Source of the DNA: a virus
Lineage: Duplodnaviria; Heunggongvirae; Uroviricota; Caudoviricetes
Direction: 5' to 3' (one strand)
DNA: 6,279 nt
Virus record (IMG/VR): IMGVR_UViG_2681813262_000009
Of the stretch, positions 1 through 6,279 are shown piece after piece. Numbering within the stretch: position 1 is the stretch's first letter; each line of letters starts with the position of its first letter. A program made the position numbers and the translations under genes. A model generated the notes under the pieces. That model was not told where the DNA came from. It saw only the letters and a program-made list of their open reading frames with translations, and ran no database searches.

Positions 1-29
1 CAACTGGATATTTTTACAGTATTAAGCAT
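1..29 (-). CDS. 5' end (first ~9 codons, MLNTVKISS...) of a DNA methyltransferase gene; the gene body continues leftwards beyond the window
   Basis: Bases 1-29 are identical to 4063-4091, which is the N-terminus of the 3462..4091 minus-strand ORF carrying a DPPY motif. Whether this copy is intact cannot be seen. Confidence 0.5.
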
Positions 30-61
30 GGATCATTAAGCCTGTCTCTGATAGGCTCATT

Positions 62-80
62 CTGCTTTTGCGCAAAGCAG
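62..80. promoter_or_regulatory. Imperfect palindrome ctgcttttgcgcaaagcag about 35-50 bp upstream of the methyltransferase start; possible operator
   Basis: 7-bp arms ctgcttt/aaagcag around a tgcgc core, seen in the sequence. Function is inferred only. Confidence 0.2.
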
Positions 81-121
81 TGGGCCTGAGGTTTGCTTGT
101 GAACCCAACGCATGAGCAGAT

Positions 122-152
122 GGCTGGTGGGTGCCCCTAACACCCACCAGCC
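122..152. repeat. Perfect 12-bp inverted repeat with 7-nt loop (ggctggtgggtg-cccctaa-cacccaccagcc)
   Basis: Exact reverse-complement arms seen in the sequence. No U-tract follows on either strand, so it is not a classical intrinsic terminator. It lies between the small-ORF terminator and the methyltransferase start. Confidence 0.5.
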
Positions 153-168
153 GCCCATTTACCACAAA

Positions 169-193
169 TAAAAAAGCCTTCACTGCGGAAGGC
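169..193 (-). terminator. Rho-independent terminator after the 65-aa ORF
   Basis: Minus strand reads GCCTTC-CGCAGT-GAAGGC followed by TTTTTTA. The stem contains the ORF stop codon TGA. Confidence 0.55.
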
Positions 194-377: not shown

Positions 378-495
378 GTCTTTTCCTTTTCCGGTTAACG
401 TGACACACCAATAACTCTTGTCGAAAAAGCCAGCAAGCTGAAAGACAGGTATTCACCGCCACCAGCGCGTTTACTGTACTGACGCGATTTCAGTC

Positions 496-1794: not shown

Positions 1795-2051
1795 CAGCGC
1801 AGCACCTCCTGCACCAGTTTTTCAAACTTTCCGACTCTGGTTTCCAGCTCTGCCACACAGTCCACCAGCTCATCTACTGCTTTCTGTGCGCGATGCTTCG
1901 CCTGCATCAGTTCCCGAAGCGCGGGTACCATATCTTTACGGATAGCGTCTTTTGTTATGCCCGTTTTTTCGAGTTGTTCAGCATGACGCAGCATTTCCTG
2001 CGCGTGTTTACGCAATTGTTCAGGGGTAAAAGTCATTGTCTGGTTGTTCAA
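1794..2051 (-). CDS. Hypothetical phage nin-region protein (85 aa from TTG at 2051, or 80 aa from ATG at 2036), predicted helical
   Basis: ORF track. Stop overlaps the rusA start (TGATG). GGAG lies 9 nt upstream of the TTG. An in-frame stop at 2067-2069 prevents any further upstream extension. Confidence 0.55.
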   Translation of the reverse strand: MNNQTMTFTPEQLRKHAQEMLRHAEQLEKTGITKDAIRKDMVPALRELMQAKHRAQKAVDELVDCVAELETRVGKFEKLVQEVLR

Positions 2052-2212: not shown

Positions 2213-2262
2213 AATAAGTGATAGTCTTAATACTAGTTTTTAGACTAGTCATTGGAGTACAG

Positions 2263-2628
2263 ATGATTGATGTCTTAGGGCCGGAGAAACGCAGACGGCG
2301 TACCACACAGGAAAAGATCGCAATTGTTCAGCAGAGCTTTGAACCGGGGATGACGGTCTCCCTCGTTGCCCGGCAACATGGTGTAGCAGCCAGCCAGTTA
2401 TTTCTCTGGCGTAAGCAATACCAGGAAGGAAGTCTTACTGCTGTCGCCGCCGGAGAACAGGTTGTTCCTGCCTCTGAACTTGCTGCCGCCATGAAGCAGA
2501 TTAAAGAACTCCAGCGCCTGCTCGGCAAGAAAACGATGGAAAATGAACTCCTCAAAGAAGCCGTTGAATATGGACGGGCAAAAAAGTGGATAGCGCACGC
2601 GCCCTTATTGCCCGGGGATGGGGAGTAA
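2263..2628 (+). CDS. insC: IS2 OrfA (InsC), 121 aa, HTH transposase N-terminal component
   Basis: ATG at 2263 preceded by GGAG. Protein [29 protein letters not shown]... The ORF track's extended 136-aa start at 2218 is upstream of this site. Confidence 0.9.
2580..2586 (+). other. Programmed -1 ribosomal frameshift heptamer A AAA AAG joining orfA to orfB
   Basis: aaaaaag at 2580-2586 lies in the orfA frame (GCA AAA AAG TGG), and orfB is in the -1 frame overlapping here. This is the classic IS3-family arrangement. Confidence 0.8.
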
Positions 2629-3491
2629 GCTTAGTCAGCCGTTGTCTCCGGGTGTCGCGTGCGCAGTTGCACGTCATTCTCAGACGAACCGATGACTGGA
2701 TGGATGGCCGCCGCAGTCGTCACACTGATGATACGGATGTGCTTCTCCGTATACACCATGTTATCGGAGAGCTGCCCACGTATGGTTATCGTCGGGTATG
2801 GGCGCTGCTTCGCAGACAGGCAGAACTTGATGGTATGCCTGCGATCAATGCCAAACGTGTTTACCGGATCATGCGCCAGAATGCGCTGTTGCTTGAGCGA
2901 AAACCTGCTGTACCGCCATCGAAACGGGCACATACAGGCAGAGTGGCCGTGAAAGAAAGCAATCAGCGATGGTGCTCTGACGGGTTCGAGTTCTGCTGTG
3001 ATAACGGAGAGAGACTGCGTGTCACGTTCGCGCTGGACTGCTGTGATCGTGAGGCACTGCACTGGGCGGTGACTACCGGCGGCTTCAACAGTGAAACAGT
3101 ACAGGACGTCATGCTGGGAGCGGTGGAACGCCGCTTCGGCAACGATCTTCCGTCGTCTCCAGTGGAGTGGCTGACGGATAATGGTTCATGCTACCGGGCT
3201 AATGAAACACGCCAGTTCGCCCGGATGTTGGGACTTGAACCGAAGAACACGGCGGTGCGGAGTCCGGAGAGTAACGGAATAGCAGAGAGCTTCGTGAAAA
3301 CGATAAAGCGTGACTACATCAGTATCATGCCCAAACCAGACGGGTTAACGGCAGCAAAGAACCTTGCAGAGGCGTTCGAGCATTATAACGAATGGCATCC
3401 GCATAGTGCGCTGGGTTATCGCTCGCCACGGGAATATCTGCGGCAGCGGGCTTGTAATGGGTTAAGTGATAACAGATGTCTGGAAATATAG
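2586..3491 (+). CDS. insD: IS2 OrfB (InsD), transposase catalytic (DDE) component, 301 aa; normally made as an OrfAB fusion by frameshifting
   Basis: ORF track [14 protein letters not shown]...[14 protein letters not shown]..., in the -1 frame relative to orfA. Confidence 0.9.
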
Positions 3492-3502
3492 GGGCAAATC
3501 CA
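3462..3502. repeat. IS2 right terminal inverted repeat (IRR)
   Basis: The reverse complement TGGATTTGCCCCTATATTTCCAGACATCTGTTATCACTTA pairs with IRL. Confidence 0.85.
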
Positions 3503-4091
3503 AGGCACTGAACCAGTGCGACACCATGTTTTTCTTTCCTGTGGCATCTGCAATCTGTTTTGCCGTTATCCCCAGGGCCGCGCGCGCATCACGAAAGTAA
3601 GAAATCAGCGGGGCCATCACATGCTGTTTCAGTGCACTGCCCTTCGCCGCATACCCGGCATCTTTCGGACGATACGGCCCCTGATAATGTTCCGCGAACA
3701 GAATGCGCTCTGTGGCGGGGAAATACGCCCGCAGGCTTTCCTTGTTGCATCCGTTCCAGCGTCCGGACGGCTTCGCCCAGATAATATGGTTCAGCACACT
3801 GAAGCGTTCACGCATCATGATTTCGATATCAGATGCCAGGCGATGACCACAGAACAGGTAAAGACTTCCGGCAGGTTTCAGCACCCGCCAGAACTGCGCC
3901 AGACACTGGTCCAGCCACTTCAGGTAATCATCGTCGCCCTTCCACTGGTTATCCCAGCCCTCAGGCTTCACTTTAAAGTACGGCGGGTCCGTGACTATCA
4001 GGTCAACAGAATTTTCGGGTAACGACCGGATAAATTCCAGGCAGTCGGCGTTGATTAACTCGCAACTGGATATTTTTACAGTATTAAGCAT
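3503..4091 (-). pseudogene. Beta-class DNA methyltransferase (N6-adenine/N4-cytosine type, DPPY motif) truncated after codon 196 by IS2
   Basis: ORF 3462..4091 has DLIVTDPPYF at residues 30-39. Only the first 196 codons are non-IS sequence; the last 13 codons and the stop come from the IS2 right end. The C-terminal region expected to bind SAM is absent. Confidence 0.8.
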
Positions 4092-4123
4092 GGATCATTA
4101 AGCCTGTCTCTGATAGGCTCATT

Positions 4124-4142
4124 CTGCTTTTGCGCAAAGCAG
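4124..4142. promoter_or_regulatory. Copy 2 of the imperfect palindrome upstream of the methyltransferase start
   Basis: Identical to 62-80. Confidence 0.2.
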
Positions 4143-4183
4143 TGGGCCTGAGGTTTGCTTGTGAACCCAACGCATGAGCAGAT

Positions 4184-4214
4184 GGCTGGTGGGTGCCCCT
4201 AACACCCACCAGCC
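4184..4214. repeat. Copy 2 of the perfect 12-bp inverted repeat with 7-nt loop
   Basis: Identical to 122-152. Confidence 0.5.
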
Positions 4215-4230
4215 GCCCATTTACCACAAA

Positions 4231-4255
4231 TAAAAAAGCCTTCACTGCGGAAGGC
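4231..4255 (-). terminator. Rho-independent terminator after the 65-aa ORF (copy 2)
   Basis: Identical to 169-193. Confidence 0.55.
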
Positions 4256-4439
4256 GTCTGTAACAACCGAACTGATAGTCTGCCAGACCCGCCATAACCA
4301 GCTGGGTCAGTATTAACTGGCAGCGTTCGCGTGAAAGGTAAGTATTCTGCGCTATCTCCCCGACTGTCGCCGGTTCGGTAACGCTTAATTCATTAAACAC
4401 CACTCTGGCGGTTTCTGTCATATCCTGCTGTTTTAGCAT
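4242..4439 (-). CDS. Hypothetical 65-aa protein (copy 2), identical protein to 180..377
   Basis: Start taken as the ATG homologous to copy 1 (4437-4439). The ORF track's 94-aa form (to 4526) arises only because a 2-bp indel at about 4446 brings an upstream ATG into frame. Confidence 0.45.
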   Translation of the reverse strand: MLKQQDMTETARVVFNELSVTEPATVGEIAQNTYLSRERCQLILTQLVMAGLADYQFGCYRRLPQ

Positions 4440-4558
4440 GTCTTTTTCCCTTTTCCGGTTAACGTGACACACCAATAACTCTTGTCGAAAAAGCCAGCAA
4501 GCTGAAAGACAGGTATTCACCGCCACCAGCGCGTTTACTGTACTGACGCGATTTCAGT

Positions 4559-4584
4559 CATAAAAAACCCGCCAGGCGGCGGGG
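4559..4584 (-). terminator. tR'-like terminator (copy 2) with a different stem-loop sequence
   Basis: Minus strand reads CCCGCC-GCCT-GGCGGG followed by TTTTTTAT. The stem differs from copy 1 but keeps a GC stem plus U-tract. Confidence 0.65.
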
Positions 4585-4617
4585 TGTAAAAAATCTTCTA
4601 ACGTCAGGCATAAAACG

Positions 4618-4660
4618 CCCATCGTTAGAGCAAATTTACCACAGATTCGGGAAAAATCAA
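4618..4660 (-). promoter_or_regulatory. pR'-like late promoter with pause element (copy 2)
   Basis: -35 TTGATT (4655-4660), 16-bp spacer, -10 TAAATT (4633-4638), then AACGATGGG (4626-4618) are all conserved although the surrounding bases differ from copy 1. Confidence 0.6.
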
Positions 4661-4665
4661 CAACA

Positions 4666-5484
4666 CTATCGCGTTACCCTCTTTAACTGCCGCTCCGCCC
4701 ATGCCTCTTCAATGTCAAACCGAACCACCAACGTATCGTAAAAGCGTTTCACTGATTTTTTCCACGTATCAAGCGTGATAGCACTCGTCACTTTGCATAT
4801 GGCATTAAATGCCTCCGTTGATGGCAGCCTTTCACAGCCACGACCACCACAACGCTGGCAGTCTCTGATAACAGGCATACCACGTTTTACCGACTCTTCA
4901 CGATGAATGGCGACACCACGCCCACGGCAATCCTTACAGGCGGTGGAAACCTCACCCTTTCCGCCACACTCCGGACAGGCAACTTTTACCACCTCCCATT
5001 TTTTCCATTCTTCCCAGTAAGACGGATACACACCTTTCGTACACTTTGCCCATACCGGCGGCTTACCATCCGGATACTGGACCTTGTTTGTAAAAACTAC
5101 GCTTTCAATAAATTTTTCCCCATAGCAACAAGGGCACTGCTTTTTACTCGCTGCGCTGCGGGCATAATCCTCAAAAGCGTACGAAGCCATAATGCGCATC
5201 ACTACCGGTTTTATTTCTGCCGGAAGTTTTCTCAACGCCGCCACACGATCGCACCGACTGAGTGCATAATCTGCCAGTAATTCTGTTGCCCGCGCCCTGT
5301 CATTCATACTGATGCCCATTTTCCCCAGGAACGCAGAAAACCCCATCTCAGCCCGATTCTGTGTCATGCCCTGCGCGGCCATCACATCAGTGATACTCAG
5401 CGCATCTTTTGACGTTGAGGCCGATGCATCGGTCAGGCAAGGGGATTTTGGGGAGTAGTATTTCGGTAAATCTTCCAGTTTCAT
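4666..5484 (-). CDS. Phage antitermination protein Q (copy 2), 272 aa; variant allele with a one-residue deletion and a diverged C-terminal ~55 aa
   Basis: ORF track. Identical to copy 1 over most of its length, with KKVREVV changed to KKWEVV and about 12 substitutions in the last ~55 residues. Confidence 0.75.
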   Translation of the reverse strand: MKLEDLPKYYSPKSPCLTDASASTSKDALSITDVMAAQGMTQNRAEMGFSAFLGKMGISMNDRARATELLADYALSRCDRVAALRKLPAEIKPVVMRIMASYAFEDYARSAASKKQCPCCYGEKFIESVVFTNKVQYPDGKPPVWAKCTKGVYPSYWEEWKKWEVVKVACPECGGKGEVSTACKDCRGRGVAIHREESVKRGMPVIRDCQRCGGRGCERLPSTEAFNAICKVTSAITLDTWKKSVKRFYDTLVVRFDIEEAWAERQLKRVTR

Positions 5485-5855
5485 TTTTTGACCTGCCCTT
5501 CAAGCATTATGGGGTAAATCTTCACCCCCAGACGTCCACCAGATACTGGCTGACCACGAACGATATTGATTTCATCAAACTGCTCATCGTCCATTAACAC
5601 TCCCGCATGTGTCAGTGCATCCAGTGGTGCTTTCAGGATATTGTCCAGGTCACGACGGCGCTTATCCGGTGGCTCTGCAATAATCTTTATCGCCAGTCTT
5701 CCGGACAGGCTTAATTTCAGTCGCTGCTGACGGACAATAAGCGCCACATCCCGGCGATAACGCTCACCGGCTTTTGATACAAAATATGTGTTGTCACGAC
5801 GTCGCCAGTAAGTATTCACCGTCGGCGGATAAGGTAAAATAAACTCATGGCGCAT
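5481..5855 (-). CDS. rusA: RusA-family Holliday-junction resolvase (copy 2)
   Basis: ORF track. Differs from copy 1 at two C-terminal residues (PIMLEGQVKK versus PIMHEEQVKK). Confidence 0.85.
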   Translation of the reverse strand: MRHEFILPYPPTVNTYWRRRDNTYFVSKAGERYRRDVALIVRQQRLKLSLSGRLAIKIIAEPPDKRRRDLDNILKAPLDALTHAGVLMDDEQFDEINIVRGQPVSGGRLGVKIYPIMLEGQVKK

Positions 5856-6112
5856 CAGCGCAGCACCTCCTGCACCAGTTTTTCAAACTTTCCGACTCTG
5901 GTTTCCAGCTCTGCCACACAGTCCACCAGCTCATCTACTGCTTTCTGTGCGCGATGCTTCGCCTGCATCAGTTCCCGAAGCGCGGGTACCATATCTTTAC
6001 GGATAGCGTCTTTTGTTATGCCCGTTTTTTCGAGTTGTTCAGCATGACGCAGCATTTCCTGCGCGTGTTTACGCAATTGTTCAGGGGTAAAAGTCATTGT
6101 CTGGTTGTTCAA
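5855..6112 (-). CDS. Hypothetical phage nin-region protein (copy 2)
   Basis: Identical to 1794..2051. Confidence 0.55.
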   Translation of the reverse strand: MNNQTMTFTPEQLRKHAQEMLRHAEQLEKTGITKDAIRKDMVPALRELMQAKHRAQKAVDELVDCVAELETRVGKFEKLVQEVLR

Positions 6113-6232
6113 AAGAAACGCTCCATCTTACTGCTGTCAGTTCGTTTATTACTGTATCTGCGCGGATTGCCGGGCTTCATGGGAGTGGAAAGCACCCGTG
6201 CACTTTCCTGGTCCACAGGCAGAAAATGTCCG

Positions 6233-6279
6233 TAGACTGGCCCCCTGAATCTCCAGACAACCAGTATCACTTAAATAAG
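6233..6279 (+). mobile_element. IS2 left end (first 47 bp), truncated by the window edge
   Basis: TAGACTGGCCCCCTGAATCTCCAGACAACCAGTATCACTTAAATAAG is identical to 2172-2218 and sits at the same junction with the flanking prophage DNA. Confidence 0.9.

Follow-up and report, generated by a model that had tools for sequence, protein, structure and literature searches.

The DNA examined here is a window of 6,279 nucleotides (nt) from a virus of the Caudoviricetes (IMG/VR record IMGVR_UViG_2681813262_000009), and the element in question is a perfect inverted repeat at positions 122-152, between a small open reading frame (ORF) and a DNA methylase gene. Its arms, GGCTGGTGGGTG at 122-133 and CACCCACCAGCC at 141-152, are 12 nt each, 100% complementary and separated by a 7-nt spacer. 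Our analysis suggests that this hairpin is probably the 3'-proximal arm, P1', of a conserved structured antisense small RNA (sRNA), EcOnc49, which lies opposite the 5' leader of the methylase. All phage genes of the window are on the minus strand, in the order 85-amino-acid (aa) ORF, RusA, Q antiterminator, tR'-like terminator, 65-aa ORF, terminator-like hairpin, P1 hairpin and N6/N4 DNA methylase. The features of the locus are listed below.

1-29, minus: 5' end of the N6/N4 DNA methylase gene, with its ATG at 29-27; the gene leaves the window
8-168, minus: full conserved element, matched by covariance model R1 in sense orientation up to the first methylase codons (141.8 bits)
122-152, minus: P1, a helix of the methylase leader, formed by the same bases as P1' on the plus strand
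123-130 (plus), 144-151 (minus), 459-466 (minus) and 1862-1869 (minus): Chi octamers of module copy A; the same four are found in copy B
176-193, minus: terminator-like hairpin with T6 at the end of the 65-aa ORF (terminator scan), convergent with the proposed sRNA and outside the conserved element
180-377, minus: 65-aa ORF; second copy at 4242-4439
521-502, minus: strong tR'-like terminator
602-1423, minus: Q antiterminator (PF03589)
1420-1794, minus: RusA
2218-3491, plus: insertion sequence (IS) of the IS3 family between the module copies, with orfA at 2218-2628 and orfB at 2586-3491
3462-4091, minus: copy-B methylase, truncated by the IS element
4070-4230: second copy of the full element (R1, 141.8 bits)
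4184-4214, plus: second, identical copy of P1' (repeat search), within the covariance model match at 4070-4230

A second, identical inverted repeat was found by the repeat search at 4184-4195/4203-4214. The hairpin is present twice because a single module is repeated at window bases 1-2217 and 4063-6279, each copy comprising rusA, Q, PR'/tR', the small ORF, the sRNA and the methylase 5' end, with the IS3-family element between them. The copies differ at 62 positions, clustered at 384-937; this cluster covers the Q C-terminus and PR'/tR', and the copies therefore carry different Q/PR' alleles. The arrangement of the whole window was absent from complete E. coli genomes, and the closest match found was an E. 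albertii contig with parts of the window. This duplication was one of three points missed by an earlier note on the sequence, the others being a Chi octamer, GCTGGTGG, in the hairpin arm and the restriction of the perfect stem to one lineage.

The earlier note had called a perfect 12-bp repeat unlikely by chance, and shuffling agreed. The unique 4062 nt contain one perfect inverted repeat with a stem of 12 bp or more and a loop of 3-20 nt, compared to a mean of 0.003 in 2000 dinucleotide shuffles. Folded in isolation, the minus-strand hairpin reached -29.1 kcal/mol (z -5.8) and its plus-strand counterpart -26.0 kcal/mol (z -5.4). The perfect 12-bp stem is peculiar to the window's Escherichia-type lineage; in most relatives the 3' arm is 13 nt long and the central part of the stem contains a 1-nt bulge or wobble pairs. 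The hairpin was left unflagged on both strands by a consensus terminator scan, and neither strand combines a GC-rich stem with at least 5 U in the 8 nt directly after it, the pattern sought for an intrinsic terminator. On the plus strand, the sequence directly 3' of the stem is GCCCATTT (also given as GCCCAUUU). The previous statement that the hairpin lacks a U-tract and is no classical terminator thus holds under the strict scan, but on the plus strand it is the final helix, and a short U-run comes after it at the presumed 3' end of the RNA. A literature search with the hairpin sequence returned only unrelated aptamer or primer matches. A two-tetrad G-quadruplex candidate in GGGCGGCUGGUGGG, which two variants break, was set aside.

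The hairpin does lie in the leader between the small-ORF terminator (193-176) and the methylase ATG (29-27), both on the minus strand, as had been described. Alignment of 13 phages showed that this intergenic stretch of about 150 nt, up to the methylase start, is conserved along its whole length and more strongly than the small ORF itself. The element goes with the methylase where upstream genes differ. It always adjoins, in the same orientation, the first gene of the methylase operon, which is the methylase itself or, in the two remote homologues L349 and L350, a Com-type zinc-ribbon gene. The terminator-like hairpin at 176-193 is missing in Providencia-type relatives, and it was therefore ruled out as part of the element. 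The flanks of the element form a 10-nt imperfect direct repeat, at 160-170 (minus, CUGUGGUAAAU) and 8-20 (methylase codons 4-7, ACUGUAAAAAUA); the 5' flank reads CUGUGAAAAU in most relatives, where the first methylase codons read CUGUAAAAAU.

Homologues of the element are widespread in enterobacterial prophages. A 19-mer from the hairpin arm recovered about 45 true homologues, and the remaining matches were chance matches in high-GC genomes. Hosts included Citrobacter, Enterobacter, Kosakonia, Kluyvera, Buttiauxella, Mangrovibacter and Trabulsiella, among others, as well as Erwinia, Mixta, Salmonella, Klebsiella, Morganella and Providencia, and related forms were present in prophages of at least 20 Enterobacterales genera. 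The window-type variant was found in 1526 of 5426 complete E. coli genomes (28%), never annotated and in up to five copies per genome. L349 and L350 carry the element 5' of methylases that are only 53% identical, with an R1 score of 35 bits (E about 2e-6). In these high-GC relatives the element lies at 329-479, an ORF at about 462-605 and the methylase from 601 onward. The intervening ORF is the Com-type zinc-ribbon gene (Pfam PF10122, 28.1 bits), and in the alignment to the family model its start codon takes the place of that of the methylase.

A search of Rfam 15 in E-value mode on both strands gave no family at the gathering threshold for the element. The best match was the Pseudomonas sRNA P26 (RF00630), at 24.2 bits compared to a gathering score of 36 (E = 0.09). 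It lay on the plus strand at 89-153 (also 4151-4215) and aligned AUGGCUGGUGG plus the terminal hairpin, but the first helix of the P26 model is not formed here, with 4 non-canonical pairs. The match is probably a chance resemblance of the terminal hairpin.

The hairpin arm is fixed by construction in a 19-mer search, and homologues were therefore sampled anew from two anchors that exclude the hairpin, namely a motif pattern within helix P3 and the methylase protein of a Morganella phage. An SfV-type methylase query gave only loci that were 98-100% identical, so the Morganella-type query was required for diversity. We scored a three-hairpin model on an unstructured MAFFT alignment of 64 de-duplicated leaders, with slid partners and 500 shuffles as controls. 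In this alignment 86.8% of cells were paired, compared to 29-38% with slid partners. Two-sided changes were seen in 57 cells, compared to 5-12 in the slid controls, and none of the 500 shuffles attained 57. An alignment based on R1 (99 matches) showed two-sided changes in 19 of 34 pairs, compared to 4-10 in slid controls; they affected 8 of 12 pairs in P1 and 4 of 12 in P3. In P2, compensatory changes were seen in 5-7 of 10 pairs across the two alignments (7/10 with R1). P1 was paired in 97% of cells in the R1 alignment. Seeing this signal required helices to be specified explicitly and compared to slid controls. With the first MAFFT alignment as input, RNAalifold returned invariant helices only, without covariation, and phylogenetic signal overwhelmed a scan of all column pairs. 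A further helix by the start codon, P4 (AUCAG/CUGAU), was dropped because it showed no compensatory change and many broken pairs.

The clearest examples come from relatives in which the whole stem has been replaced. In place of the window's P1, the Providencia-type stem is ACUGUAAAAGUG/CACUCUUACAGU, and the stems of two further leaders are ACAGUGAGGAUG/CAUCCCCACUGU (L330) and ACCGAUGAGUG/CACACAUCGGU (L339). These relatives were recovered via the methylase protein, not via the hairpin, and the stem sequence of L349 also differs. The element is a multi-helix structure with compensatory substitutions. The covariation check proposed in the earlier note therefore came out in favor of structure: pairing of P1 was kept through compensatory changes in homologous prophage regions, including the relatives with different stems, and homologues without the repeat or without compensatory change, named there as the outcome that would overturn the idea, did not appear. 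The note had also listed a dimeric protein-binding site, which this comparison argues against, since the arms change jointly to unrelated sequences with complementarity kept. Replacement of the P1 stem in this manner makes a sequence-specific palindromic operator unlikely and suggests that the pairing is conserved as a nucleic-acid structure. The imperfect palindrome noted at 62-80 exists, and is helix P3 of the same element. The view of the hairpin as an isolated structure is probably wrong, because it forms one arm of a three- or four-helix element.

Published crosslinking data match a transcript of the plus strand. EcOnc49 was listed as an orphan Hfq peak and predicted sRNA in prophage Sp9 of E. 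coli O157:H7 Sakai, based on UV crosslinking and analysis of cDNA (CRAC), at 1772764-1772808 on the strand opposite the Sp9 late genes (Tree et al. 2014, PMC4104026, Table S2). The Sp9 locus consists of antiterminator ECs_1778, small ORF ECs_1779, the element at 1772841-1773001 (138.9 bits) on the late-gene strand, and methylase ECs_1780. The coordinates in PMC4104026 refer to an older record version; calibration with the published EcOnc03 and AgvB1 sequences gave an offset of about +135 to +140. With an offset of about +137 nt applied, the EcOnc49 peak falls inside the element and corresponds to window positions 64-108. The element was not found in the late regions of Sakai prophages Sp15, Sp3 and Sp10.

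Two chimeras annotated EcOnc49 were recovered by RNase E crosslinking, ligation and sequencing of hybrids (CLASH), with ECs0662 and ECs3797 as partners (Waters et al. 2016, PMC5286369). Their EcOnc49 parts, GCTTTTGCGCAAAGCAGTGGGCCTGAGG(TTTGC) and GCTTTTGCGCAAAGCAGTGGGCCTGAGGTTTGC, have 0 mismatches to window plus strand 64-96 and 4126-4158. Both CLASH fragments and the CRAC peak share the first base G64. An RNA with the exact plus-strand sequence 64-96 is thus crosslinked to Hfq and RNase E in vivo and has a recurrent 5' end at G64. We found no main-text mention of EcOnc49 in the literature searched. The conserved three-way-junction fold suggests that hairpin 122-152 would be included in the same transcript as the EcOnc49 reads. 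The proposed sRNA and its signals are as follows.

29-34, plus: weak -35-like sequence TGGATC, 17 nt 5' of the -10-like element, a candidate read from the sequence
49-57, plus: conserved extended -10-like element TG-A-TAGGCT, a putative promoter element; second copy at 4111-4119
64-78, plus: RNA 5' end G64 and 5' hairpin P3' (GCUUU-UGCGC-AAAGC), from the CLASH and CRAC starts and the fold
79-85, plus: 5' strand of helix J (AGUGGGC), which closes the three-way junction by pairing with 153-159 (fold)
91-121, plus: hairpin P2', 11 bp in the window copy, with a variable loop; compensatory changes
122-152, plus: hairpin P1', the hairpin of the earlier note, with a 12-bp GC-rich stem and a 7-nt loop; last arm of the predicted three-way junction
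153-161, plus: 3' strand of J (GCCCAUU) and a short U-run, the probable 3' end region of the sRNA

The region 5' of G64, the predicted start and the G of GCUUUUGCGC, resembles a promoter. The hexamer TAGGCT (52-57) ends 7 nt 5' of G64, with TG at 49-50. An arrangement of TG-n-TA(G/A)GCT, 6 nt and GCUU was found in 88 of 94 unique members, and the other 6 have a 7-nt spacer; among the 88, TG was present in 83 and TAGGCT or TAAGCT in 82. The equivalent in L349 is TGATAAGCT-CCGGCC-GCUUUGCAAAGC. This motif may be the sRNA promoter, as it would place +1 at the first base of the reads. The -10-like arrangement together with the sRNA start would account for the invariance of the sense-strand block GAGCCUAUCA. 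The -35-like TGGATC shares bases with a conserved GATC and, on the opposite strand, with the methylase start codon. This GATC (31-34), just 5' of the methylase ATG (29-27), is nearly invariant across the family, and it is conceivable that the proposed promoter is sensitive to Dam or to the phage methylase through it. An extra hairpin at 39-57 (AGCCTGTCTCTGATAGGCT) is present in the window lineage only and overlaps the proposed -10 element; it pairs fully on the plus strand only, with G.U there compared to an A.C mismatch on the other strand. An extended -10 on the sense strand (TGTGRAAAT) was rejected for its variable spacing and for G at -11 in about half of members. Also rejected was a sense mini-ORF from the invariant AUGGGC (MGGWWVL*), which has an AUA start in L339, a codon-4 stop in one variant, variable length and no Shine-Dalgarno sequence.

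Folded from G64, the RNA had a minimum free energy (MFE) structure identical to its centroid, at -48.7 kcal/mol (z -4.77), consisting of P3', J, P2', P1' and a tail UUUACC. The 3' side of the family reads GCCCA, then 2-5 U (mostly 3-4), then CACAG. The predicted sRNA would span 64 to about 161, or about 100 nt, with its 3' end placed by the fold.

Most evidence indicates that the plus strand, antisense to the methylase, is the strand that more likely folds, with per-helix evidence that is mixed. RNAalifold gave -35.4 kcal/mol for the antisense strand, as the hairpin plus three-way junction, compared to -27.7 kcal/mol for the sense strand; mean MFE was -48.2 and -44.5, respectively. Of 36 members, 32 had the lower dinucleotide-shuffle z-score on the antisense strand (means -4.47 antisense and -3.36 sense). 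The antisense strand of the window copy had a z-score of -5.73 and an MFE near the centroid, compared to z -3.87 for the sense strand, which had a diffuse ensemble, an MFE frequency of 0.017 and a centroid 15 kcal/mol above the MFE. In P2, 96% of cells were paired on the antisense and 76% on the sense strand; for the eight pairs in its outer and middle parts, the figures were about 99-100% and 36-87%, respectively. The sense-strand A.C mismatches in P2 lie at different positions in Enterobacteriaceae and Morganellaceae. Helix J (AUGGGC/GCCCAC) was 99.8% paired on the antisense and 83.9% on the sense strand, and an A-U to C-G change was seen in this helix in L349. For the whole model, with J replacing the P3 extension, pairing was 94.7% antisense and 86.8% sense. 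The remote homologues L349 and L350 folded at -67 and -68 kcal/mol on the antisense strand, compared to -50 on the sense strand, and their P1 is G.U-rich on the antisense strand only. The lower stem of P1 was Watson-Crick in 100% of cells on either strand and the top in 99.6% and 98.9%.

Folding thermodynamics, the distribution of G.U and A.C pairs across P2 and J, the promoter-like motif and the Hfq and RNase E reads together make the opposite-strand sRNA the most likely functional RNA at this locus. Of the earlier proposal of an RNA-level element acting in processing, stability or riboregulation, the structure is supported by covariation, but the hairpin is probably not isolated and the methylase leader is probably not the functional RNA. 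We propose that the conserved extended -10-like element at 49-57 would start transcription at G64. The RNA would form the 5' hairpin at 64-78 and then a three-way junction, closed by J (79-85/153-159) and carrying P2' and P1', and would end after the junction, with P1' and J serving as an atypical terminator or a 3' stability structure. The roles most consistent with the position of P1' in the model would be 3' structural protection and, with J, transcript termination.

The predicted sRNA is fully complementary to methylase leader positions roughly -35 to -132. This complementarity and the deep linkage to the first gene of the methylase operon, including the Com-type loci, favor a function in cis-antisense control of the operon. 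In the lysogen, a promoter of its own, overlapping the start of the methylase, would drive synthesis of the RNA. Upon induction, Q-modified polymerases would cross the sRNA promoter, yield the complementary leader and silence the promoter, and pairing of sRNA and leader could then change the processing, stability or translation of late transcripts. A trans-acting role on host mRNAs through Hfq is a possibility in addition to cis control, as the Hfq binding and the CLASH partners ECs0662 and ECs3797 leave room for trans targets.

Several observations weigh against an antisense sRNA of this form. The EcOnc49 peak passed in 3 of 5 CRAC data sets, no northern blot was shown for it (Tree et al. 2014, PMC4104026), and the CLASH support consists of two single chimeric reads. 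The CRAC peak stops about 14 nt short of hairpin 122-152 and does not cover it. A sigma-70 consensus scan of the window found no promoter, so that the extended -10 assignment rests on conservation and the read ends. The terminator scan found no canonical intrinsic terminator 3' of the hairpin on the plus strand, and the ribosome-binding site of the methylase lies outside the proposed RNA. In the middle of P1, pairing was better on the sense strand (89% compared to 71%), with 61 G.U compared to 11 A.C cells. One pair of the P3 extension (G-C, G.U and A-U in different members) fits the sense fold only, because its 3' partner lies in the putative -10 element, outside the proposed RNA. The element also lies at a fixed distance from the downstream start codon, as expected of a 5' untranslated region element.

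These last three points would be expected if the functional RNA were instead a structured 5' leader on the minus strand, within the Q-antiterminated late transcript, that controls translation, processing or stability of the methylase or com-methylase mRNA in cis and has the hairpin as its first helix. The fixed site directly 5' of the operon's first start codon and the constant co-orientation, which extends to the remote com-first homologues, would suit such a leader, and the methylase has no obvious Shine-Dalgarno sequence. In the com/mom system of phage Mu, mRNA structure controls translation of a toxic DNA-modification gene, providing a precedent for this type of control. We nevertheless consider a sense leader unlikely. 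On the sense strand every lineage has two A.C mismatches in P2, at positions that differ between lineages, and each of these reads as G.U on the antisense strand; J has one pair fewer than in the antisense fold; and the poorer z-scores and the diffuse ensemble described above argue in the same direction. P4, the helix that would lie nearest the start codon, is the one without compensatory change. A sense leader would also leave unexplained the antisense reads and the conserved TGnTAGGCT at a fixed distance from P3. The mixed wobble pattern, in which the P1 middle favors the sense strand and the P2, J and P3 core favor the antisense strand, could be accommodated if both strands were functional, with the sense leader and a cis-antisense sRNA forming mirror-image stem-loops that make loop-loop contacts, as in classical antisense systems. 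The lower and upper P1 stem is Watson-Crick on each strand, and both strands of the window fold better than shuffles. The mixed pattern could, however, arise from a few lineage-specific events, as the cell counts are non-independent. We give a two-strand function a low probability; it overlaps with a cis-antisense sRNA and does not exclude one.

The hairpin could also act at the DNA level, either as an inverted Chi pair, with GCTGGTGG on each strand, that would weaken degradation by RecBCD of phage DNA in linear or rolling-circle form, or as an operator for a dimeric protein. The Chi octamer occurs 8 times in the window, four per module, compared to 0.28 expected from shuffles, and within each module all but one of them read in the late-sense direction. 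Chi action in phage lambda depends on orientation, and the orientation conserved here is presumably that recognized by RecBCD entering from the lysis/cos side. In 12 of 13 phages, whose hosts range from E. coli to Morganella, the Chi arm and its flank do not vary, whereas the other arm drifts. In Escherichia phage PhiR5_1 (L012), the small ORF, the terminator and AAATGGGCGGCTGGTGGGTG are homologous to the window; homology ends exactly past the Chi arm, directly after GGCTGGTGGGTG, and is followed by unrelated sequence, so that the break reads as a mosaic recombination junction inside the hairpin. Against a DNA-level role, the octamer was broken and the hairpin kept in about 9 of 62 unique variants from the sample anchored outside the hairpin, and whole clades (Providencia type, L330, L339 and L349) have the hairpin without Chi. 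These losses indicate that Chi is not the defining feature of the element. The second, plus-strand Chi is present only in the perfect-stem lineage, the center of conservation is AUGGGCGGCUGG and not the octamer, and compensatory replacement of half-sites is unlike a sequence-specific operator. A DNA-level role as the explanation of the hairpin is thus very improbable, and Chi may have a bonus function in the DNA of the Escherichia-type lineage. A more elaborate account would treat the element as a phage regulatory RNA of a new class and combine an Hfq-associated antisense sRNA of about 100 nt, ending in a Y-shaped three-way junction instead of a canonical terminator hairpin, with a GATC methylation-sensitive feedback switch between methylase and sRNA and with a DNA role for Chi. 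We regard this combination as improbable. If true, the switch would time DNA modification in the late phase, and one 31-bp sequence would have both RNA and DNA roles in the Escherichia-type lineage.

The module around the sRNA is common in phages. The same order of Q, small ORF and methylase, with tRNAs and stx or with lysis genes after it, has been annotated in SfV, phiP27, mEp460, many phages encoding Shiga toxin 2 (Stx2) and phages of Klebsiella and Morganella. For the 65-aa ORF, similarity to winged-helix proteins of the TrmB or MarR type was weak and below threshold (E about 0.003-0.04), and in some phages that retain the element this ORF is swapped for other sequences. A lambda-like late promoter region lies 3' of Q (about 601-500, minus), with TTGATT, 17 nt and TAAATT followed by AACGATGGG. 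This last sequence resembles the pause-inducing sequence of lambda PR', and the terminator at 521-502 comes next. The PR'/tR' site 3' of Q is where StxS-type short RNAs arise in Stx phages; the StxS paper does not cover this locus.

In lambdoid and Stx-converting prophages, the module lies between the Q antiterminator and the stx or lysis genes. A defined RNA family at this position provides a testable handle on the silencing and timing of late-expressed phage DNA methylases, and it opens a second question, the effect of an abundant prophage sRNA on the host via Hfq. The locus also illustrates that a hairpin within an mRNA leader can belong to a gene on the opposite strand.

Phages are known to encode cis-antisense RNAs: P22 sar acts against ant, lambda OOP against cII, and P1 and P7 have c4. 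The RNA proposed here is like these in being short and highly structured, in lying opposite the 5' or regulatory region of a phage gene that is harmful if untimely, and in being convergent with its target. It differs in having no sequence or Rfam relationship to them. In addition, sar, OOP and c4 end in canonical terminators, whereas the end proposed here is a three-way junction followed by no more than 2-5 U. P22 sar also overlaps a ribosome-binding site, whereas the methylase start codon would lie outside this RNA.

Compared to the com-mom system of Mu, the locus shares the prospect of post-transcriptional control of late DNA modification, and a Com-type gene stands between element and methylase in L349 and L350. 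In Mu, however, the regulator is a protein that remodels an mRNA hairpin, and the window has no Com gene; Mu mom has no known antisense RNA. The anti-sRNAs AgvB, AsxR and EcOnc03 of enterohaemorrhagic E. coli are Hfq-bound, 51-60 nt long and share a conserved 3' terminator hairpin, GCCCGAACCCACTCGGGCTTTT (PMC4104026). The present RNA resembles these anti-sRNAs as an Hfq-bound RNA antisense to the late operon 3' of PR' in lambdoid prophages and expressed in lysogens. Their location, 3' of the stx/moron site, and their sequences, which show no relation to the element, were both grounds for rejecting an identity of this type.

The closest known counterpart is EcOnc49 itself, with the same type of locus (Q, small ORF, element, DNA methylase), the same strand and identical read sequence. 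EcOnc49 had been listed only as a peak, with no ends, structure, promoter, family or function reported. It is likely an expressed sRNA, uncharacterized until now, to which the present analysis adds a family, a covariation-supported fold, a likely promoter and a likely 5' end.

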